Positions 3,876 to 59,349 are shown, numbered from the stretch's first letter. The stretch: DNA of 64,000 nucleotides from Patescibacteria group bacterium (GCA_028714495.1 JAQTMH010000002.1:7219-71218), one strand, 5' to 3'. Notes: generated from the sequence alone by a model not told the origin. Numbers and translations: made by a program.

Positions 3876-5309
3876 TTATATTACGATAACCGGCGTGCCT
3901 ACATCCACCCGGTCATAGACGATTTTCGATGCTGGCACTGGCAAGCGCACGCAACCGTGTGAAACCTTGCGACCGAGATGGTTCTCGCCTTCGTAATAAA
4001 CACCGCCGCCTTTTAATCTCCAGAAAGGCAATCCGTGAATCCCGTGTCCTTTGCTGGTGAACGCCATCCAGTTCGGCATATAAAGCTGGTAGGGTTTTGA
4101 GTAGGCCAGAGGCGCCTTGCTTAAAACCTTGTAAGTTCCGTGGGGCGTGTCCATACCGGGTTTGCCCGTGGAAACGGGATACTCGGCTATTTTAATTCCA
4201 TTTTCGTAATAATATAGCATCTGTTTTTCAGTATTGATCTCGATGTATTTTGCCAGGTCAATCCTGCCTTCGGCGATCCGGCGTCCAGGCAAGGTAAGTA
4301 TTTCGGCTTTTGAATCGCCCTGGATATCAGCCGCGGCGACTGAAACACCGCCTCGAAAATTCGTTTCATAGGCAAAGAAGTTTAGACCGAGCGCCTTGCC
4401 GTCGCCCTCAAAAGCCCTCACTTGCGGCCCACCCCCGGCGTTGGCTCCGGCTAGAACTTCATCTAAGCCATCGCCGTCAATGTCACCGCTGGCAACATTC
4501 ACTCCGCCAAGAAAATTTTCCGGGAAAGCCAAAAAGTCCCCCAGGATGGTTTTTTGTTCATTGGTTTTATATACCCTCACCCAAGCTTTGCCGTAAGCGT
4601 GGATTCCCATTACTATTTCTTCCTCTGTTCCGCCGTCAACATTGGCGCAGGCAACCGATACTCCGCCCTGATCAGTCGTATTAAACGGCCGGAAATCTAA
4701 GCCGGTATATTTGCCGTAGCGATCAAAGACCCTTACGTGCGGCTGGCTATTTACCCCTGAACCTACGACAATCTCCTTCTTGCCGTTTCCATCCACATCG
4801 CAGGCAGCTACTTGAATGCCTCCGTTATAATCAGTGGCAAAAGCGAAAAAGCCGGGAGTGAACTTCTCTTTGCCGGCGCCATCAAATATCCTGACCTGAG
4901 CGCCACCGCGAAAACGTGGCGCCGTGATTATTTCTTCCTGGCCATCGCCATCAAGATCTCCGGTTGCTATCTCAATCCCGCCTTGAAAACTTTCCGGGTA
5001 GGCGTAAAAGTTTGTTATCGGCGATCCGTCCAAGCGAAAAGTTCTAACTTGAGGTCCGCCGTATGGGCCAGCGCCGACAATAATCTCTTTAACGCCATCA
5101 CCGCCTAGATCGCCTACGGCCATCGAACCGCCCCCTTTAAATGTTTTTTCAAAGGCATAAAACTCTTTAACATTCTTCAGGGTCGAGCTGTCTGTTATTT
5201 TTAACAGAGGCTCCCGGGTAGTCGAAGCCAGCGCCGGCTCGGCAAACAAAAAAGCCGTACCGGCAAAGGCACCGCCTAAAATAAAAAGGGTTACTAAAAA
5301 TCTTTTCAT
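3876..5309 (-). CDS. Secreted FG-GAP/VCBS-repeat protein with C-terminal L,D-transpeptidase (YkuD) catalytic domain
   Basis: N-terminal signal peptide MKRFLVTLFILGGAFAGTAFLFA. Repeated GDLDGDG..EI..G..GGGPQVR units. C-terminal HGIHG...GRKVSHGCVRLP motif (His/Cys catalytic pair of L,D-transpeptidases). Confidence 0.7.
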   Translation of the reverse strand: MKRFLVTLFILGGAFAGTAFLFAEPALASTTREPLLKITDSSTLKNVKEFYAFEKTFKGGGSMAVGDLGGDGVKEIIVGAGPYGGPQVRTFRLDGSPITNFYAYPESFQGGIEIATGDLDGDGQEEIITAPRFRGGAQVRIFDGAGKEKFTPGFFAFATDYNGGIQVAACDVDGNGKKEIVVGSGVNSQPHVRVFDRYGKYTGLDFRPFNTTDQGGVSVACANVDGGTEEEIVMGIHAYGKAWVRVYKTNEQKTILGDFLAFPENFLGGVNVASGDIDGDGLDEVLAGANAGGGPQVRAFEGDGKALGLNFFAYETNFRGGVSVAAADIQGDSKAEILTLPGRRIAEGRIDLAKYIEINTEKQMLYYYENGIKIAEYPVSTGKPGMDTPHGTYKVLSKAPLAYSKPYQLYMPNWMAFTSKGHGIHGLPFWRLKGGGVYYEGENHLGRKVSHGCVRLPVPASKIVYDRVDVGTPVIVI

Positions 5310-50654: not shown

Positions 50655-51833
50655 TTAGGACGCCATCGGCCATTCATCAGCGTCTGTCTGATCAGCCGGA
50701 TTATCCGTCTGACCAAATTCATTCGCTGACTGACCAAAGAGCATTTCACCGGCGATTTCCTTCAAGGTGGCCAGGACGCGATCATGGCCAATCCCTGATT
50801 CCTGGGTTCTTGTGTAATCAACCGCCCTGATTACCACCTCGAAATCACCAACCGAATTCCACTCCTTTAGGTGACAGGCAAGGCGATCCAGTTCAGCCGG
50901 ATCAGCCAGAGCGCTTTCAACCAGTATCTGATCCAGTACGCGCCAATCACCTACAACCGCTACCAGTTTGTCCGCCTGTCTCTCCCAGAAGCGGCGGCGA
51001 GCCTCCTGGACCATATGGTAGGCAATCCAGAAAAGCGTCGTGTACACCGGGTCGGGATCCCTGCGCCTGAGCCAGTCAAACATTATCTGCGTGATCTCAT
51101 GGGCCTTGACTAGGCGCTTGAGTGGAGGCTTTTTGCCCCAGCCACGCAGGATTTCGACCAAGCGGTGATGATCCTGCGGATCACCCGGCAAATCGCACGC
51201 GTAGGCGATGTCTGAAAGCACCCTCCAACCGCCCACATCAACCGCGATGTTATGCAGGCAGTCTCCCGGACTGACCGCGGCTGAAGCCAATTGATTCTGG
51301 AGGCGGCTTGTGAACAACGGCTGAGTAGTTTCAGCAGGGTTATGCCCCTTCCCGCCTAAATCAGGAAGTTCAGTCTGTCTGTCAGGTTCAGCGGTTTGGT
51401 CAATCGACGACCCTTTCAGCTCATGAGTTGGGCCTGACCGTTCCAGATTGCCCTGATTGTGACCGATGGCGCGGAACAACGCGGCATTCACAATCAGCCG
51501 GAACAGCGCTGGATTTACTGACCGAGGAATGAAACCGTCGGCTCCGCACTGTCTCGCTGCTTTACGGCACATCGCGTGGTTCTGACCGGCCGGGATATTA
51601 GCCATCAGATAAATCGGGGGCCGCAAAATCAGCCTAAGCTTCTTGCTTTCCTGGACCAGGCGCAGACCAGGCGATTCATCAGATTCGGCTAAGACTAGAT
51701 CGGGCTGAAAGCAAGAGATCATAGTCAGGGCTGAGGCCAAATCGGACGCGCCGCAGACCTCAACCCCAGCCAGCAGATCGGAGTAACTAGCCAAACGACC
51801 CAGATTGATGTCAAATACCAGGATTCGTTCCAT
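50655..51833 (-). CDS. Response-regulator receiver (REC-like) domain protein with large uncharacterised C-terminal domain
   Basis: N-terminal RILVFDIN...PDLVLAES...PIYLMANIP...GADGFIPRSV follows the CheY-like (beta-alpha)5 pattern. The phospho-acceptor position is atypical. G+C-rich. Confidence 0.45.
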   Translation of the reverse strand: MERILVFDINLGRLASYSDLLAGVEVCGASDLASALTMISCFQPDLVLAESDESPGLRLVQESKKLRLILRPPIYLMANIPAGQNHAMCRKAARQCGADGFIPRSVNPALFRLIVNAALFRAIGHNQGNLERSGPTHELKGSSIDQTAEPDRQTELPDLGGKGHNPAETTQPLFTSRLQNQLASAAVSPGDCLHNIAVDVGGWRVLSDIAYACDLPGDPQDHHRLVEILRGWGKKPPLKRLVKAHEITQIMFDWLRRRDPDPVYTTLFWIAYHMVQEARRRFWERQADKLVAVVGDWRVLDQILVESALADPAELDRLACHLKEWNSVGDFEVVIRAVDYTRTQESGIGHDRVLATLKEIAGEMLFGQSANEFGQTDNPADQTDADEWPMAS

Positions 51834-52118
51834 GACCCAACCTCCTCTTTGTGACTCATAATAAAAAGAGCCTCATTAGAGGAGGCGTCATTTCTAGGGA
51901 CTAATCCTTATTGTCCCTGAGCTTTGTAACTATAACCTTGATGCCGGTTACGCTACTGGCTCCCGATGAACTGTACCCCTTAGCTAAAGCTATGGGGTAA
52001 AGCGTCCAAATTCAGTTCATCGTTCGACGCCTCATCATTACTACCCTAGTGTTTCCAGGATAGTAAAAAAACATTAGCATATTGTTTTCAGAATGTCAAG
52101 CCCCTGCGGATACTGCCC

Positions 52119-52147
52119 TTGACTAATCAAATCTTTGCTGATATTAT
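52119..52147 (+). promoter_or_regulatory. Sigma70-like promoter TTGACT-N17-TATTAT driving a short plus-strand unit
   Basis: Seen directly. Downstream leader has a 9-bp hairpin CTCCAGCGG...CCGCTGGAG that partly sequesters a GGAGGG Shine-Dalgarno. Confidence 0.45.
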
Positions 52148-52232
52148 GGAATGCTCTTTTACAAATAGACATTCTCTCCAGCGGGGAGCGTAGAAACCAT
52201 ATTCCGCTTTCTCCGCTGGAGGGAATCGAAGG

Positions 52233-52298
52233 ATGATGGCCAAAATCATCGAATCACGAGTTCGTCGCGTGGTTCGCTCCTTCACTCTCCGGGCTTAA
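52233..52298 (+). CDS. Candidate 21-aa leader/micro-peptide MMAKIIESRVRRVVRSFTLRA
   Basis: GGAGGG lies 9 nt upstream of ATGATG. It sits in a promoter-to-terminator unit. Not in the ORF track (<60 aa). Confidence 0.25.
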   Translation: MMAKIIESRVRRVVRSFTLRA

Positions 52299-52317
52299 GC
52301 AACTAAACAGCAAAGCC

Positions 52318-52470
52318 ATGCGGTTTCTCTTCCTGCTCGTACTGACCATCATTCTTCTGAAGCTCTTTCTGCCTGAACTTGCCATCCCCGCCATTGAAAT
52401 CCTCCACCGACTGTTGACGATCCTTGGCGAGTTCCTTAAGCAGTTCACAAGTTCTATCCCCGGCATTTGA
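52318..52470 (+). CDS. Candidate 50-aa hydrophobic peptide MRFLFLLVLTIILLKLFLPELAIPAIEILHRLLTILGEFLKQFTSSIPGI
   Basis: Lies between the leader ORF and the terminator at 52493-52534. No obvious SD. Competing minus-strand ORFs (52303..52509, 52254..52502) overlap. Coding strand uncertain. Confidence 0.2.
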   Translation: MRFLFLLVLTIILLKLFLPELAIPAIEILHRLLTILGEFLKQFTSSIPGI

Positions 52471-52492
52471 TGCTGGAGATAGACACACCTCG

Positions 52493-52534
52493 AGCGCCCC
52501 AAAGACCATCTGGTCTAGGGCGCTCTTTTCTTTG
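52493..52534 (+). terminator. Intrinsic terminator GAGCGCCC-(nested loop)-GGGCGCTC plus TTTTCTTT
   Basis: 8-bp G+C stem with an inner AGACCATCTGGTCT hairpin in the loop, followed by a T-run. Confidence 0.5.
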
Positions 52535-52576
52535 CCATAGAACCAATAAAAGTGATGAGTAGAAGATAATCCTTTG

Positions 52577-52612
52577 GTAACTACATTATCGAAGCCTAGG
52601 GCAAAGACCCGC
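52577..52612. repeat. Direct repeat copy 1 (about 36 nt, GGTAACTACATTATCGAAGCCTAGGGCAAAGACC)
   Basis: Near-identical copy at 52745-52780 (GGTTATTACATTATCGGAGCCATAGGCAAAGAAC). Each is followed by a local hairpin. Confidence 0.5.
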
Positions 52613-52744
52613 CGAAGGCCGCTTTGAATAACCTATTTGATGGTGAAAAGAAATTACTGCTTAGTGAAGTAAGTGTAAATAACTGGTGACCGGAGGCGGG
52701 TAAACAATTTGCTACGCCAAAAGGTAAATAAATGCCATAATTTG

Positions 52745-52780
52745 GTTATTACATTATCGGAGCCATAGGCAAAGAACACC
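52745..52780. repeat. Direct repeat copy 2
   Basis: See copy 1. Spacing about 168 nt in a non-coding G+C-rich stretch. Confidence 0.5.
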
Positions 52781-52965
52781 CGTACCACTTCGGGTACGGG
52801 GCAGGCTGCCGAGCCCCGGCCTTAAGTGCCGAGGGGAGGCGGGTATGGTTAATTAATCACCCCCCGGTTGATATTGGAGATGCCGGATCAGGTCCGGCAT
52901 GACTACTGTGTGGTATCTTCAAGCCAAAGCAAATTCCGCCCAAGGTTCAAGCACTTAATAAAAAA

Positions 52966-52994
52966 CAACAGCCCCGTCTTCCAGGGCCGTTGTC
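52966..52994 (-). terminator. Intrinsic terminator (ACAACGGCCC-loop-GGGGCUGUUGU followed by UUUUUUAUU on the minus strand)
   Basis: Lies 10 nt downstream of the micropeptide A stop. Confidence 0.55.
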
Positions 52995-53003
52995 TCTAGT
53001 ACC

Positions 53004-53051
53004 TTAGCAAGTGCAAGGATCATTGCCACAGGTTGGGCATGGTTCTGTCAT
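53004..53051 (-). CDS. Cys-rich micropeptide, 15 aa: MTEPCPTCGNDPCTC (CPxCG knuckle)
   Basis: AAGGAGA lies 8 nt upstream of ATG. Possible -10 TATAAT with adjacent TG at 53087-53094 (minus strand); the putative -35 is poor. In-frame stop 7 codons upstream, so no longer ORF exists. Strong terminator immediately downstream. Not in the ORF track (<60 aa). Confidence 0.35.
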   Translation of the reverse strand: MTEPCPTCGNDPCTC

Positions 53052-53265
53052 GGTGGAAATCTCCTTATATTAATGACTTTAAGAATATTATACAGTATTT
53101 TCCTTTTTTAAAAAACAATATTTTTATGGCTAACATTAGTCAATTTTTAGATATTATACAATATAAATATTACCTATTTACCTAATAAATGCCTTGTTTT
53201 TATTGCTTATTTACATATTTCAGCTATAATTAGAGCATAATGTTAATAACTTATTAAGGAGACGT

Positions 53266-53550
53266 ATGTCGAAATCAATGAGTAAGTCTCAGCTACACGC
53301 GCTTCTGGCCGAGAAATCAGGACGCTCAAAAAAAGAGGTCAGTGATTTCCTGGACCTATTGGTGACCACCGCCTACAACGAAGCAAAAAATGGCGGCGAG
53401 TTTTCACTGCCAGGTCTTGGTAAACTGGTCAAGAAGCATCGCGCAGCTCGTCAAGGACGCAACCCTGCCACTGGAGCCACTATCCAGATCCCGGCGAAAA
53501 CGGTTTTGAAGTTCCGCGTGGCCAAAGCAGCCAAAGACGCGATTCTCTAG
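53266..53550 (+). CDS. hup: HU family DNA-binding protein
   Basis: GRNPATGATIQIPAKTVLKFRVAKAAKDAI matches the HU/IHF arm signature (GRNP.TG). Promoter TTGCTT-N16-TATAAT and AAGGAG RBS upstream. Confidence 0.9.
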   Translation: MSKSMSKSQLHALLAEKSGRSKKEVSDFLDLLVTTAYNEAKNGGEFSLPGLGKLVKKHRAARQGRNPATGATIQIPAKTVLKFRVAKAAKDAIL

Positions 53551-53562
53551 TTACTAGAAAGT

Positions 53563-53600
53563 CAAAACCAAAAAAGGTCTTCAATCGAAGGCCTTTTTGG
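53563..53600 (+). terminator. Intrinsic terminator after hup (AAGGTCTTCAATCGAAGGCCTT plus TTTTGG)
   Basis: Seen directly. Confidence 0.45.
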
Positions 53601-53622
53601 TTATCATTTTTTAATATGGTTT

Positions 53623-54060
53623 TTATCTTCTCCGATATAAACCCACCAATTCAGCTGAGTCAAGGCTGTGCTTATTAACTTCAGAAACGAAATTCTGACG
53701 GTTAAGATTTTCCAGTTTTTCGGTATCCAGAGCGTAAACCGTGAAGATATAGTGATGCACCCCCGAAGGCGGGCAAGGACTGCCATAAGATGTTTTGCCA
53801 TAGTCATTTTCAACCTCCGTAGCTCCGGCTGGACAACCGCAATTCTCTGGCAATTCCCTAGTGCTGACCGGGATGTTTGACACCAGCCAGTGAGCAAATT
53901 CACCGCCAGGCGCATCTGGATCAAGGCAGGTCAGGGCAAAGCTTTTTGTGCCATCAGGAAAACCTTCCCAAGCCAAATGCGGAGAAATTTCATCCCCATC
54001 GCAAGTGTAGGTTGGCGGGAGGTTTCCTTCGTGTTCAAAGTTTTTACTTTTTAGATTCAT
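53623..54060 (-). CDS. YbhB/YbcL family PEBP (Raf-kinase-inhibitor-like) protein
   Basis: FALTCLDPDAPGGEFAHWLVSNIP contains the DPDAP PEBP signature. Confidence 0.8.
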   Translation of the reverse strand: MNLKSKNFEHEGNLPPTYTCDGDEISPHLAWEGFPDGTKSFALTCLDPDAPGGEFAHWLVSNIPVSTRELPENCGCPAGATEVENDYGKTSYGSPCPPSGVHHYIFTVYALDTEKLENLNRQNFVSEVNKHSLDSAELVGLYRRR

Positions 54061-58237: not shown

Positions 58238-58269
58238 CTCGTGTTATATCTGCTTTCTGTTATTCTTTC

Positions 58270-58371
58270 GGCGCGCATTTGCAGGAACAATCTTTATCGC
58301 ATTTGCAATTTTCGACAGTCTCCCCGCACCCGCAAGGGCACATTTCTTTATCATTTTCCATATTTTTTCCG
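58270..58371 (-). CDS. Metallothionein-like Cys-rich peptide, 33 aa: MENDKEMCPCGCGETVENCKCDKDCSCKCAPKE
   Basis: 8 Cys in CxC/CKC/CSCKC arrangement. Promoter TTGAAA-N17-TATTAT at 58402-58430 (minus). Terminator downstream. The ORF-track plus ORF 58158..58382 is its antisense. Confidence 0.4.
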
Positions 58372-58502: not shown

Positions 58503-58619
58503 CTATTCCTTTTTCTTGTTCGCCTTGGCCAAAAGATAAATAAACGTACCCAGGAAAACTAGAAACAGTCCCGTTCCAATTGGCGAGCCCCAGCCTAAAA
58601 CTGAATAAATGTCGCTCAT
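58503..58619 (-). CDS. Small hydrophobic protein, 38 aa (MSDIYSVLGWGSPIGTGLFLVFLGTFIYLLAKANKKKE), co-transcribed downstream of the MacB-type ABC pair
   Basis: Strong RBS AGGAGG 8 nt upstream. One TM helix. Not in the ORF track (<60 aa). Confidence 0.4.
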   Translation of the reverse strand: MSDIYSVLGWGSPIGTGLFLVFLGTFIYLLAKANKKKE

Positions 58620-58671: not shown

Positions 58672-59349
58672 TTAGGCTAGCTTCCCGTCGACGATTTTGA
58701 TCACCCGGTCGCAGAAGCGGGTTAAATCTTCATTATGCGTGACCATAACAATAGTTTTTTGCTTCTTTCTAACCAGGTCGCGGAGTAGCTCAACAATCGC
58801 TTCGGAATTTTTTGTGTCCAGCTCGCCGGTCGGCTCATCAGCCAGGATCAGCCGGCCGTCATTCATCAGCGACCGAGCAATGGCCACGCGCTGTTGTTCT
58901 CCGCCAGATAGTTCGGCTGGGGTATGGTCAAACCTCTCAGTTAATCCGACCTCAGTCAGTAATTCTCTTGCTCTGGTCGCGGTGATTTTGGCTGGCAAGC
59001 CAGCATAGTCTCCAGCCAGTATGACATTCTCCAGAGCAGTCAGAGTTGAGAGCAAATTAAATCCCTGGAAGATGAAACCCAGTTCTTTAGCCCGCAAATC
59101 AGCCTGACCATTGTCCTTTAGTTGGGACAATAGCTTTCCAGCGATTTCCACATCGCCCTTAGTCGGCCGATCGAGCGCGCCCAAGAGGTGCATAAAGGTT
59201 GATTTGCCGGAACCGGACGGTCCGATTACGGCCACAAATTCGCCGGCGCGGAACTCGGTGGTAACGCCTTTTAAGGCCTTCACCTCATTGTGCTGACCTG
59301 GTGAATAAACTTTTTCGAGATTAATTGTTCGAGCAATGATATTTTCCAT
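58672..59349 (-). CDS. ABC transporter ATP-binding protein (MacB/LolD-like)
   Basis: Walker A GPSGSGKST, signature LSGGEQQRVAIARSL, Walker B LILADEPTGELD. Confidence 0.85.
   Translation of the reverse strand: MENIIARTINLEKVYSPGQHNEVKALKGVTTEFRAGEFVAVIGPSGSGKSTFMHLLGALDRPTKGDVEIAGKLLSQLKDNGQADLRAKELGFIFQGFNLLSTLTALENVILAGDYAGLPAKITATRARELLTEVGLTERFDHTPAELSGGEQQRVAIARSLMNDGRLILADEPTGELDTKNSEAIVELLRDLVRKKQKTIVMVTHNEDLTRFCDRVIKIVDGKLA

Follow-up and report, generated by a model that had tools for sequence, protein, structure and literature searches.

A conserved 15-codon gene of Patescibacteria encoding a putative minimal Cys4 knuckle

Small cysteine-rich metal-binding proteins

Haloarchaea possess very small, stand-alone proteins that are built from CPxCG motifs and often left unannotated, the C(P)XCG zinc-finger micro-proteins (Brz, HVO_2753, HVO_0758). 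For several of them, binding of one Zn ion or of another metal has been demonstrated (PMC2253796, PMC10716476, PMC11241148). In Haloferax, nine of the 14 C(P)XCG micro-proteins that were purified bound zinc and three more bound another metal; some of the motifs are metal-free, and AlphaFold2 cannot tell which (PMC11241148). The peptide described here is encoded in a Patescibacteria group bacterium, within a stretch of 64,000 nucleotides that was analysed as a whole and is called the window below. It is likewise very small, stand-alone, built on CPxCG and unannotated, but it is bacterial, has no detectable homology to the haloarchaeal proteins and combines one CPxCG with a C-terminal CxC within 11 residues where those proteins have two CPxCG motifs. 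With 15 aa it lies well inside the length limit of the haloarchaeal class (<70 aa), whereas its second Cys pair is C-T-C and its single CPTCG stands against the two CPxCG motifs by which the class is recognised. By analogy, the micro-protein would work most like the haloarchaeal CPxCG zinc-finger micro-proteins without being a member of their class, with metal binding putative in the present case.

Zinc ribbons and rubredoxin (the C-ribbon of TFIIS/RPA12/Rpb9, Rpo12, LysW) need a second CxxC knuckle 15-30 residues away and a β-hairpin scaffold, whereas in the window peptide the second ligand pair is a CxC just four residues downstream and a β-ribbon is absent. The first half of the peptide, (K)CPxCGN(D), resembles the first Zn knuckle of TFIIS/RPA12-type ribbons, Rpo12, LysW and rubredoxin, in all cases below threshold; these were the top matches in the PDB, and none of the rubredoxin or Zn-ribbon models of Pfam scored above its threshold. 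Rubredoxin (PF00301), taken to require two knuckles (CxxCG ... CPxCG) about 30 residues apart together with a match to the Pfam model, was rejected: family members gave no Pfam hit at E ≤ 10 and only a knuckle-level match to PDB 1spw (E = 0.97).

Metallothioneins (bacterial SmtA/BmtA, mycobacterial MymT and the 25-aa fungal Cu-MTs) hold several ions in thiolate clusters by means of 7-20 Cys and show little conservation outside these residues. The window peptide is like them in its tiny size, its CxC and CxxC motifs, its lack of aromatic residues and in needing no enzymatic partner, but it has 4 Cys, enough for one site, and its G, N, P and T are strictly conserved. A bacterial metallothionein was rejected as well, there being no Pfam or NCBIfam match and 4 Cys against a criterion of at least nine Cys/His ligands. 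The SEC-C motif (PF02810), which forms the C-terminal zinc tail of SecA, is also a short (~20 aa), self-contained, Cys-rich metal motif at an extreme C-terminus; its pattern C-x-C-x-S-G-x8-C-[CH] spaces the ligands unlike the window family. One homologue with a C-terminal tail reached 13.8 bits against a gathering threshold of 20.4 (E = 0.055), over 9 residues that cover PCTC-DSG only, and SEC-C was therefore set aside. No occurrence of the sequence strings of the unit was found among 8 million papers, and the literature had nothing on CPR metallothioneins or on cysteine-rich small proteins of Patescibacteria.

The micro-gene and its expression signals

The gene and the signals around it lie on the minus strand:
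53004..53051, minus strand: coding sequence of the micro-protein, which reads ATGACAGAACCATGCCCAACCTGTGGCAATGATCCTTGCACTTGCTAA and translates to MTEPCPTCGNDPCTC*, with the TAA stop at 53004..53006
53007..53039, minus strand: core CPTCGNDPCTC, within the micro-protein ORF
53060..53066, minus strand: Shine-Dalgarno sequence AAGGAGA, 8 nt before the ATG
53087..53094, minus strand: putative promoter -10, TATAAT with adjacent TG, 35 nt upstream of the ATG, with a poor -35
53115..53160, minus strand: possible second upstream promoter region, seen as a scanner match and a repeat, of putative function
52960..52993, minus strand: intrinsic terminator, with stem ACAACGGCCC (52984..52993) / GGGGCTGTTGT (52965..52975), then T6 (52960..52965)

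From 53051 to 53004 the codons of the ORF are ATG ACA GAA CCA TGC CCA ACC TGT GGC AAT GAT CCT TGC ACT TGC TAA. An earlier note on this DNA had described a minus-strand ORF of 15 aa at this place with a CPxCG knuckle and five Cys. A reading of the sequence confirms the ORF and the knuckle, in the form CPTCG, while the translation corrects the count: MTEPCPTCGNDPCTC has four Cys in its 15 aa (positions 5, 8, 13 and 15; 27% Cys) and no aromatic residues. The expression signals that the note had listed, namely the Shine-Dalgarno sequence, the -10 with a poor -35, an in-frame stop 7 codons before the ATG and a G+C hairpin with a U-run past the stop codon, were all found again.

Two relatives (L125 and L133) carry GGAGGTGA at a similar distance from the start, and several other family members have an A/T-rich leader without a Shine-Dalgarno sequence or are near-leaderless (L011). 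The position of the -10 predicts a 5' UTR of about 28 nt. The consensus promoter scanner is silent on TG-TATAAT because just a T-run stands where the -35 should be. A TATAAT-like -10, some 25-35 nt before the start, is nevertheless the only element common to the upstream regions of six members, in which no shared operator was found. Further upstream in the window, the possible second promoter region comprises a duplicated TGTATAAT at 53153..53160, the scanner match TTGACT-17-TATTGT at 53143..53115 and an imperfect inverted repeat, GACTAATGTTAGCC, at 53128..53141. The second TGTATAAT and the scanner match lie in a 35-nt direct repeat, D2 (53064-53098 / 53130-53164, 71% identity).

A separate observation concerns a subfamily with C-terminal tails (L028, L067, L095, L118 and L122), in which a near-palindrome, (A)GTTTAGTCGACTAACTGTT, lies ~35-55 nt upstream of the micro-gene ATG. 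It overlaps the putative -35 and the spacer and may serve as a repressor operator or form a 5' hairpin. The inverted repeat of the window at 53128..53141 is imperfect, with its half-sites arranged opposite to those of this GACTAA/TTAGTC-type palindrome.

The terminator starts about 10 nt past the stop codon, has a loop of 5-8 nt and a stem that can be extended by A-U and G-U pairs to 52997. With a dG of -25 kcal/mol (z -7.6) it was as stable in none of 200 shuffles, and the unit from promoter to terminator is compact at ~95 nt. An Rfam scan of the surrounding 1.7 kb (E ≤ 10) gave no match at the micro-gene and found only the c-di-GMP-II riboswitch downstream.

Conservation at the amino-acid level

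The chance of meeting such an ORF was assessed with 200 first-order Markov simulations of the window, in which ATG-initiated ORFs of 8-20 aa with at least four Cys were counted. On average 0.25 were found per simulated window, and about 21% of the simulations contained at least one (P ~0.2), which rules out the Cys-rich composition as evidence for a gene. As the composition is unremarkable, the case rests on the expression signals and, above all, on conservation across genomes.

This was addressed by scanning GTDB, with one genome per species, for a DNA pattern that fixes M1, C5, P6, C8, G9, C13, C15 and the stop and leaves eight codons free. Five of the 13 matches are 15-codon ORFs encoding essentially the window peptide, four of them in Patescibacteria:
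L003, Patescibacteria MAG: MFEPCPTCGNDPCTC
L004, Patescibacteria MAG: MFEPCPTCGNDPCSC
L006, Patescibacteria MAG: MTGPCPTCGNDPCTC
L011, Candidatus Wildermuthbacteria: MKDTCPTCGKDPCTC
L009, MAG labelled Gammaproteobacteria, GC 0.62: MNETCPTCGNDPCTC

The other eight matches were dismissed as chance, since they occur in high-GC genomes, are interrupted by stops or fall within other genes, and are unrelated at the free residues. In the five homologues, by contrast, residues that the pattern had left free (T7, N/K10, D11, P12 and T/S14) are kept, and each of the five has a terminator after the ORF. Pairwise differences at the pattern-free codons amount to 0.07 at codon position 1, 0.00 at position 2 and 0.59 at position 3. 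Differences are thus almost confined to third positions, which implies purifying selection on the protein. When the 1.5-kb intergenic region of the window was compared with all fetched loci by blastn, only the 48-nt ORF could be aligned. Because the flanks are unalignable and the upstream regions share the -10 alone, a conserved RNA with an accidental ORF is excluded.

As judged from these codon patterns, strong purifying selection acts on the amino-acid sequence of the ORF in several lineages of the Patescibacteria (CPR). The homologue search for which the earlier note had called thus bears out its proposal of an independent micro-gene, with amino-acid conservation in relatives that include five 15-codon homologues in GTDB. 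We consider it very probable that this is a real, unannotated, protein-coding gene.

A wider family of stand-alone micro-proteins

A scan of metagenomes with the core C-P-x-C-G-x-D-P-C-x-C returned at least 120 loci. Stand-alone genes of 15-39 codons were recognised at no fewer than 13 distinct metagenome loci; they encode M-x(2-6)-CP[TVKNG]CGNDPC[TS]C and end after the core or continue into an acidic tail rich in Thr, Pro and Glu. Of 19 stand-alone members, 18 have a strong hairpin with a T-run directly past the stop. When 5.8 billion predicted proteins were searched with a profile whose alignment was headed by the 40-aa stop-to-stop translation of a tailed homologue, 46 small proteins of 28-70 aa were retrieved, all of them unnamed or “hypothetical” and lacking any Pfam domain. 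The majority read MDETTKCPVCGN[DENAS]PCTC-P/T/E tail-...TPAQ. The tail makes these proteins longer by 10-35 residues, and only such tailed forms are found in protein databases because the 15-residue forms fall below the limits of gene callers.

In the family alignment (A4), C-x2-C-x-N-x-P-C-x-C is invariant, and G and T reach at least 90%. A family can be proposed on this basis, consisting of an ATG, 2-8 residues, C-x2-C-x-N-x-P-C-x-C and a stop or an acidic T/P/E tail, with an intrinsic terminator directly after the gene; the window peptide has every invariant column and the terminator. The family profile, tailed homologues, multi-repeat proteins and the padded window peptide were searched against Pfam, NCBIfam and PDB sequences and yielded nothing beyond knuckle matches below threshold. 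On sequence criteria, the stand-alone CxxCGNxPCTC micro-proteins are classified here as a new, uncurated family, which would be the free-standing form of an uncurated 11-residue module.

A set of marine metagenome contigs (L026, L037, L086, L117, L064 and L021/L072) contains ORFs of 23-42 aa that read M..(K/N)P-CP[SAC]CGCDPCDC-(D/G)WG.. and lie inside apparent phage gene clusters. They have the Cys framework of the family with another subfamily signature, in which Cys replaces Asn and a DWG tail follows.

The 11-residue unit in large proteins

The same unit is found within large proteins. The R subunits of type I restriction systems (HsdR) carry two or three copies in the linker between Helicase_C and EcoEI_R_C, and phage proteins contain single copies, of which the one in L031 shares its protein with a DUF2213 domain. 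A phage protein of at least ~500 aa has the unit as its extreme C-terminus, and in L045 one copy follows straight after a lipoprotein signal. Tandem arrays occur in secreted or lipoprotein-like proteins, with seven copies in P0048, four in P0049 and three in P0053, while P0047 (818 aa) has 23 tandem C-x-x-C-G-N-D-P-C-T-C units and ends in Cu_amine_oxidN1 domains. With exactly four Cys per tandem unit and spacers of 2-4 residues in between, the unit behaves as a self-contained folding unit. None of the Pfam and NCBIfam models covers it, not even in the 23-repeat P0047, and no PDB chain contains the whole unit. At the level of sequence, then, the occurrences mark CxxCGNxPCTC as an autonomous module that is used singly or in tandem in unrelated large proteins.

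Genomic neighbourhood

The micro-gene of the window is divergent from an HU gene (53266..53550, plus strand). Downstream on its own strand there are ~960 nt without a credible ORF, followed by a c-di-GMP-II riboswitch and a gene for a 392-aa protein, the next minus-strand gene being 1.1 kb off. In L006 the micro-gene also adjoins an HU gene, whose product is 71-73% identical to the window HU, yet this gene is on the opposite side and convergent. In L133 it adjoins a PEBP gene, and the PEBP gene of the window is 0.6 kb from the micro-gene. HU and/or PEBP-family genes are present within 0.6 kb of the micro-gene in three related loci (window 53266..54060; L006 4..1245; L133 2005..2648), in varying order and orientation. 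A cysteinyl-tRNA synthetase gene lies 0.6-1.3 kb upstream in L003 and L004, and neighbours at other loci include exonuclease, ATP synthase, DnaA/RnpA, cupredoxin and cold-shock protein genes.

The 98 flanking ORFs of 19 loci were compared with Pfam; among the 25 most frequent of 120 matched families none was present in more than two loci, and those that recur are housekeeping families (CysRS, HU, PEBP, ATP synthase). Recurrent maturation enzymes or transporters were likewise absent from these 25 families, and the check for co-occurring modification enzymes that the earlier note had suggested yielded none that recurs. Since no family recurs in more than two of the 19 loci, the micro-gene is an independent unit without an obligatory partner. 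No metal-homeostasis gene is consistently near the micro-gene. In L150 a tailed micro-gene (P0003) and a cupredoxin gene diverge from each other, 250 nt apart (4296..4751, minus strand; 5001..5120, plus strand); this is the only metal-related neighbour seen, in one lineage, and it is not recurrent.

Metal binding and alternative explanations

The explanation that we favour, and hold to be rather probable, is that a 15-codon, independently transcribed gene produces a cytoplasmic micro-protein that consists of about one 11-residue unit and acts as a free-standing minimal Cys4 knuckle for one metal ion. The unit C-P-x-C-G-N-D-P-C-T-C would make up nearly the whole micro-protein, and its four invariant thiolates, provided by the CPxCG zinc knuckle and the C-terminal CxC, would chelate one thiophilic ion in a tetrahedral site. 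This ion would most likely be Zn2+, with Fe2+, Co2+, Ni2+ or Cu+ also possible. The G-N-D-P turn, with its invariant Asn and Pro, could close the loop between the two ligand pairs and thereby give a compact knuckle. The free peptide might then be a small buffer or chaperone for metal in the cytoplasm, or else a docking knob that is stabilised by metal; the choice between these roles is the weakest step of the model, and one binding site per peptide speaks against a buffer, as the capacity would be low. One tetrahedral metal site is the simplest arrangement because four invariant thiols lie within 11 residues of a peptide that has no signal sequence. For MTEPCPTCGNDPCTC itself, the chance that it binds a metal ion is put slightly better than even. 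In the AlphaFold2 model the knuckle is of moderate confidence (pLDDT 78-83), the tail is disordered (56-60) and regular secondary structure is absent; a Foldseek search of the PDB with this model gave no match.

The four Cys of a real micro-protein could instead form two intramolecular disulfides or a redox-active thiol pair, which would make it a disulfide-knotted or redox peptide. The unit is abundant in proteins with a signal peptide or lipoprotein signal (P0047, P0048, P0049, P0053, L045), where disulfides are common and where two of them per unit would explain the Cys equally well. The strict conservation of G-N-D-P-x-T also points to a defined fold and not to a loose thiolate cluster, and some C(P)XCG proteins of Haloferax are metal-free (PMC11241148). 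The stand-alone peptides, on the other hand, have no signal peptide and are therefore located in the reducing cytoplasm, and the unit is also present in cytoplasmic HsdR and phage internal proteins; moreover, CPxCG has the spacing of a canonical metal knuckle and C-x-C disulfides are strained. Disulfides or a redox pair in the free peptide are accordingly judged improbable. A different possibility is that a metal-stabilised knuckle docks on a macromolecular partner as a regulator or adaptor and does not buffer metal. The C-terminal zinc motif of SecA, which docks onto SecB or the ribosome, serves as a model for this, and both the position of the unit at the extreme C-terminus of some phage proteins and the weak resemblance to SEC-C (E = 0.055) recall it. 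Docking would fit the very strong conservation of non-Cys residues, the tailed variants with a conserved C-terminal ...ETPAQ/E end and the recurrence of HU and/or PEBP adjacency in three related loci. It has a low probability in our estimate, given that the partner cannot be named, that the neighbourhoods are otherwise unrelated and that docking by each unit is unlikely in tandem arrays of 4-23 units.

Three further readings would give the locus another product or purpose. Several RiPP classes typically have short precursors rich in Cys, and the earlier note had considered a RiPP-like precursor; such a precursor, or an exported signalling peptide with post-translational modifications, is very unlikely here. 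The survey of the 19 neighbourhoods described above, in which none of the 25 most frequent of the 120 matched families exceeded two loci, goes against it, 15 aa are too short for a leader and a core, and the unit is also a structural module inside large proteins. A short ORF with four Cys codons and an intrinsic terminator directly after it might also be a cis-regulatory leader peptide, that is, a Cys-codon attenuator that controls read-through of the terminator into downstream genes, and the cysteinyl-tRNA synthetase genes in L003 and L004 would suit such a device. Both the MFE and the centroid fold keep the terminator independent, with no alternative pairing of the ORF with the 5' arm of the terminator; the next minus-strand gene of the window, 1.1 kb away, has its own c-di-GMP-II riboswitch, and the gene downstream in L006 is the convergent HU gene. 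In addition, P, G, N, D, P and T are conserved like Cys, and the tails extend the protein by 10-35 residues. As the terminator folds apart, no regulated gene follows, conservation extends beyond Cys and tailed variants exist, the attenuator reading is largely refuted and its probability minimal. The compact promoter-to-terminator unit, together with the fact that a Cys-rich ORF of such size is not improbable by composition, could lastly suggest a non-coding small RNA of ~95 nt with a fortuitous ORF. This is refuted by the codon-position pattern, with positions 1 and 2 fixed and position 3 scrambled, and is hardly credible also in view of the conserved start and stop, the unalignable flanks and UTRs and the empty Rfam result. 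The free-standing Cys4 knuckle thus remains the preferred explanation.

Other features of the window

Several further elements were observed in the window:
51933..52043, minus strand: c-di-GMP-II riboswitch aptamer, 58.9 bits, above the gathering score
51870..51886: terminator-like hairpin past the riboswitch, then a 392-aa ORF without a Pfam domain (50655..51833, minus strand)
52044..52960: region of ~960 nt that separates the riboswitch from the micro-gene terminator and has no credible ORF
58260..58361, minus strand: second Cys-rich micro-ORF of 33 aa, MENDKEMCPCGCGETVENCKCDKDCSCKCAPKE, with 8 Cys and CxCxC motifs
58503..58619, minus strand: hydrophobic 38-aa ORF, MSDIYSVLGWGSPIGTGLFLVFLGTFIYLLAKANKKKE, with a GGAGG Shine-Dalgarno sequence, directly downstream of an ABC-transporter ATPase gene (58672..59349)

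A c-di-GMP-II riboswitch upstream of the 392-aa ORF is notable in a Patescibacterium. The region between the riboswitch and the micro-gene contains two pairs of diverged direct repeats (52573-52614 / 52741-52782, 79%; 52680-52702 / 52823-52845, 78%), both of which adjoin a G+C hairpin (e.g. 52779..52800). Nothing in Rfam or in the fetched loci matched this region, and the repeats could be tandem small RNAs or decayed sequence. The 38-aa ORF is likely a small membrane protein.

The window does hold two Cys-rich micro-peptides, as the earlier note had said in pairing the micro-gene with the 33-aa peptide at 58.3 kb. The second ORF exists and has a promoter-like site (TTGAAA-17-TATTAT) as well as a hairpin with a T-run. 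A relationship between the two did not emerge: homologues of the 33-aa peptide were found neither in the predicted-protein search nor among the fetched loci, and it has no family signature. With its 8 Cys and CxCxC motifs it looks more metallothionein-like than MTEPCPTCGNDPCTC.

Significance

With 15 codons, the micro-gene is too short for any standard gene caller, yet it exhibits textbook purifying selection across deep lineages of the Patescibacteria and is therefore a clean example of functional coding sequence that annotation has missed. With the present analysis, CxxCGNxPCTC is defined as a module of type I restriction R subunits, phage proteins and secreted repeat proteins that Pfam and NCBIfam lack. 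If the four Cys bind metal, the micro-protein would be among the smallest genetically encoded metal-binding proteins and an easily synthesised, simple model for minimal Cys4 sites.

A broader proposal, which is tentative and to which we give somewhat less than an even chance, is that CxxCGNxPCTC represents an undescribed autonomous 11-residue mini-domain, metal-binding or disulfide-stapled and possibly the smallest self-contained one in nature. It would exist as a free 15-residue protein from its own gene in Patescibacteria and as beads, up to 23 of them, in restriction enzymes, phage structural proteins and secreted proteins. In its free form it could work as a minimal metallochaperone or as a buffer; alternatively, acting as a decoy or competitor, it could engage whatever recognises this unit within the larger proteins. 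CPR bacteria have tiny genomes in which few non-essential genes are kept, and the retention of the micro-gene in such genomes suggests that it has a basic cellular role in these organisms.
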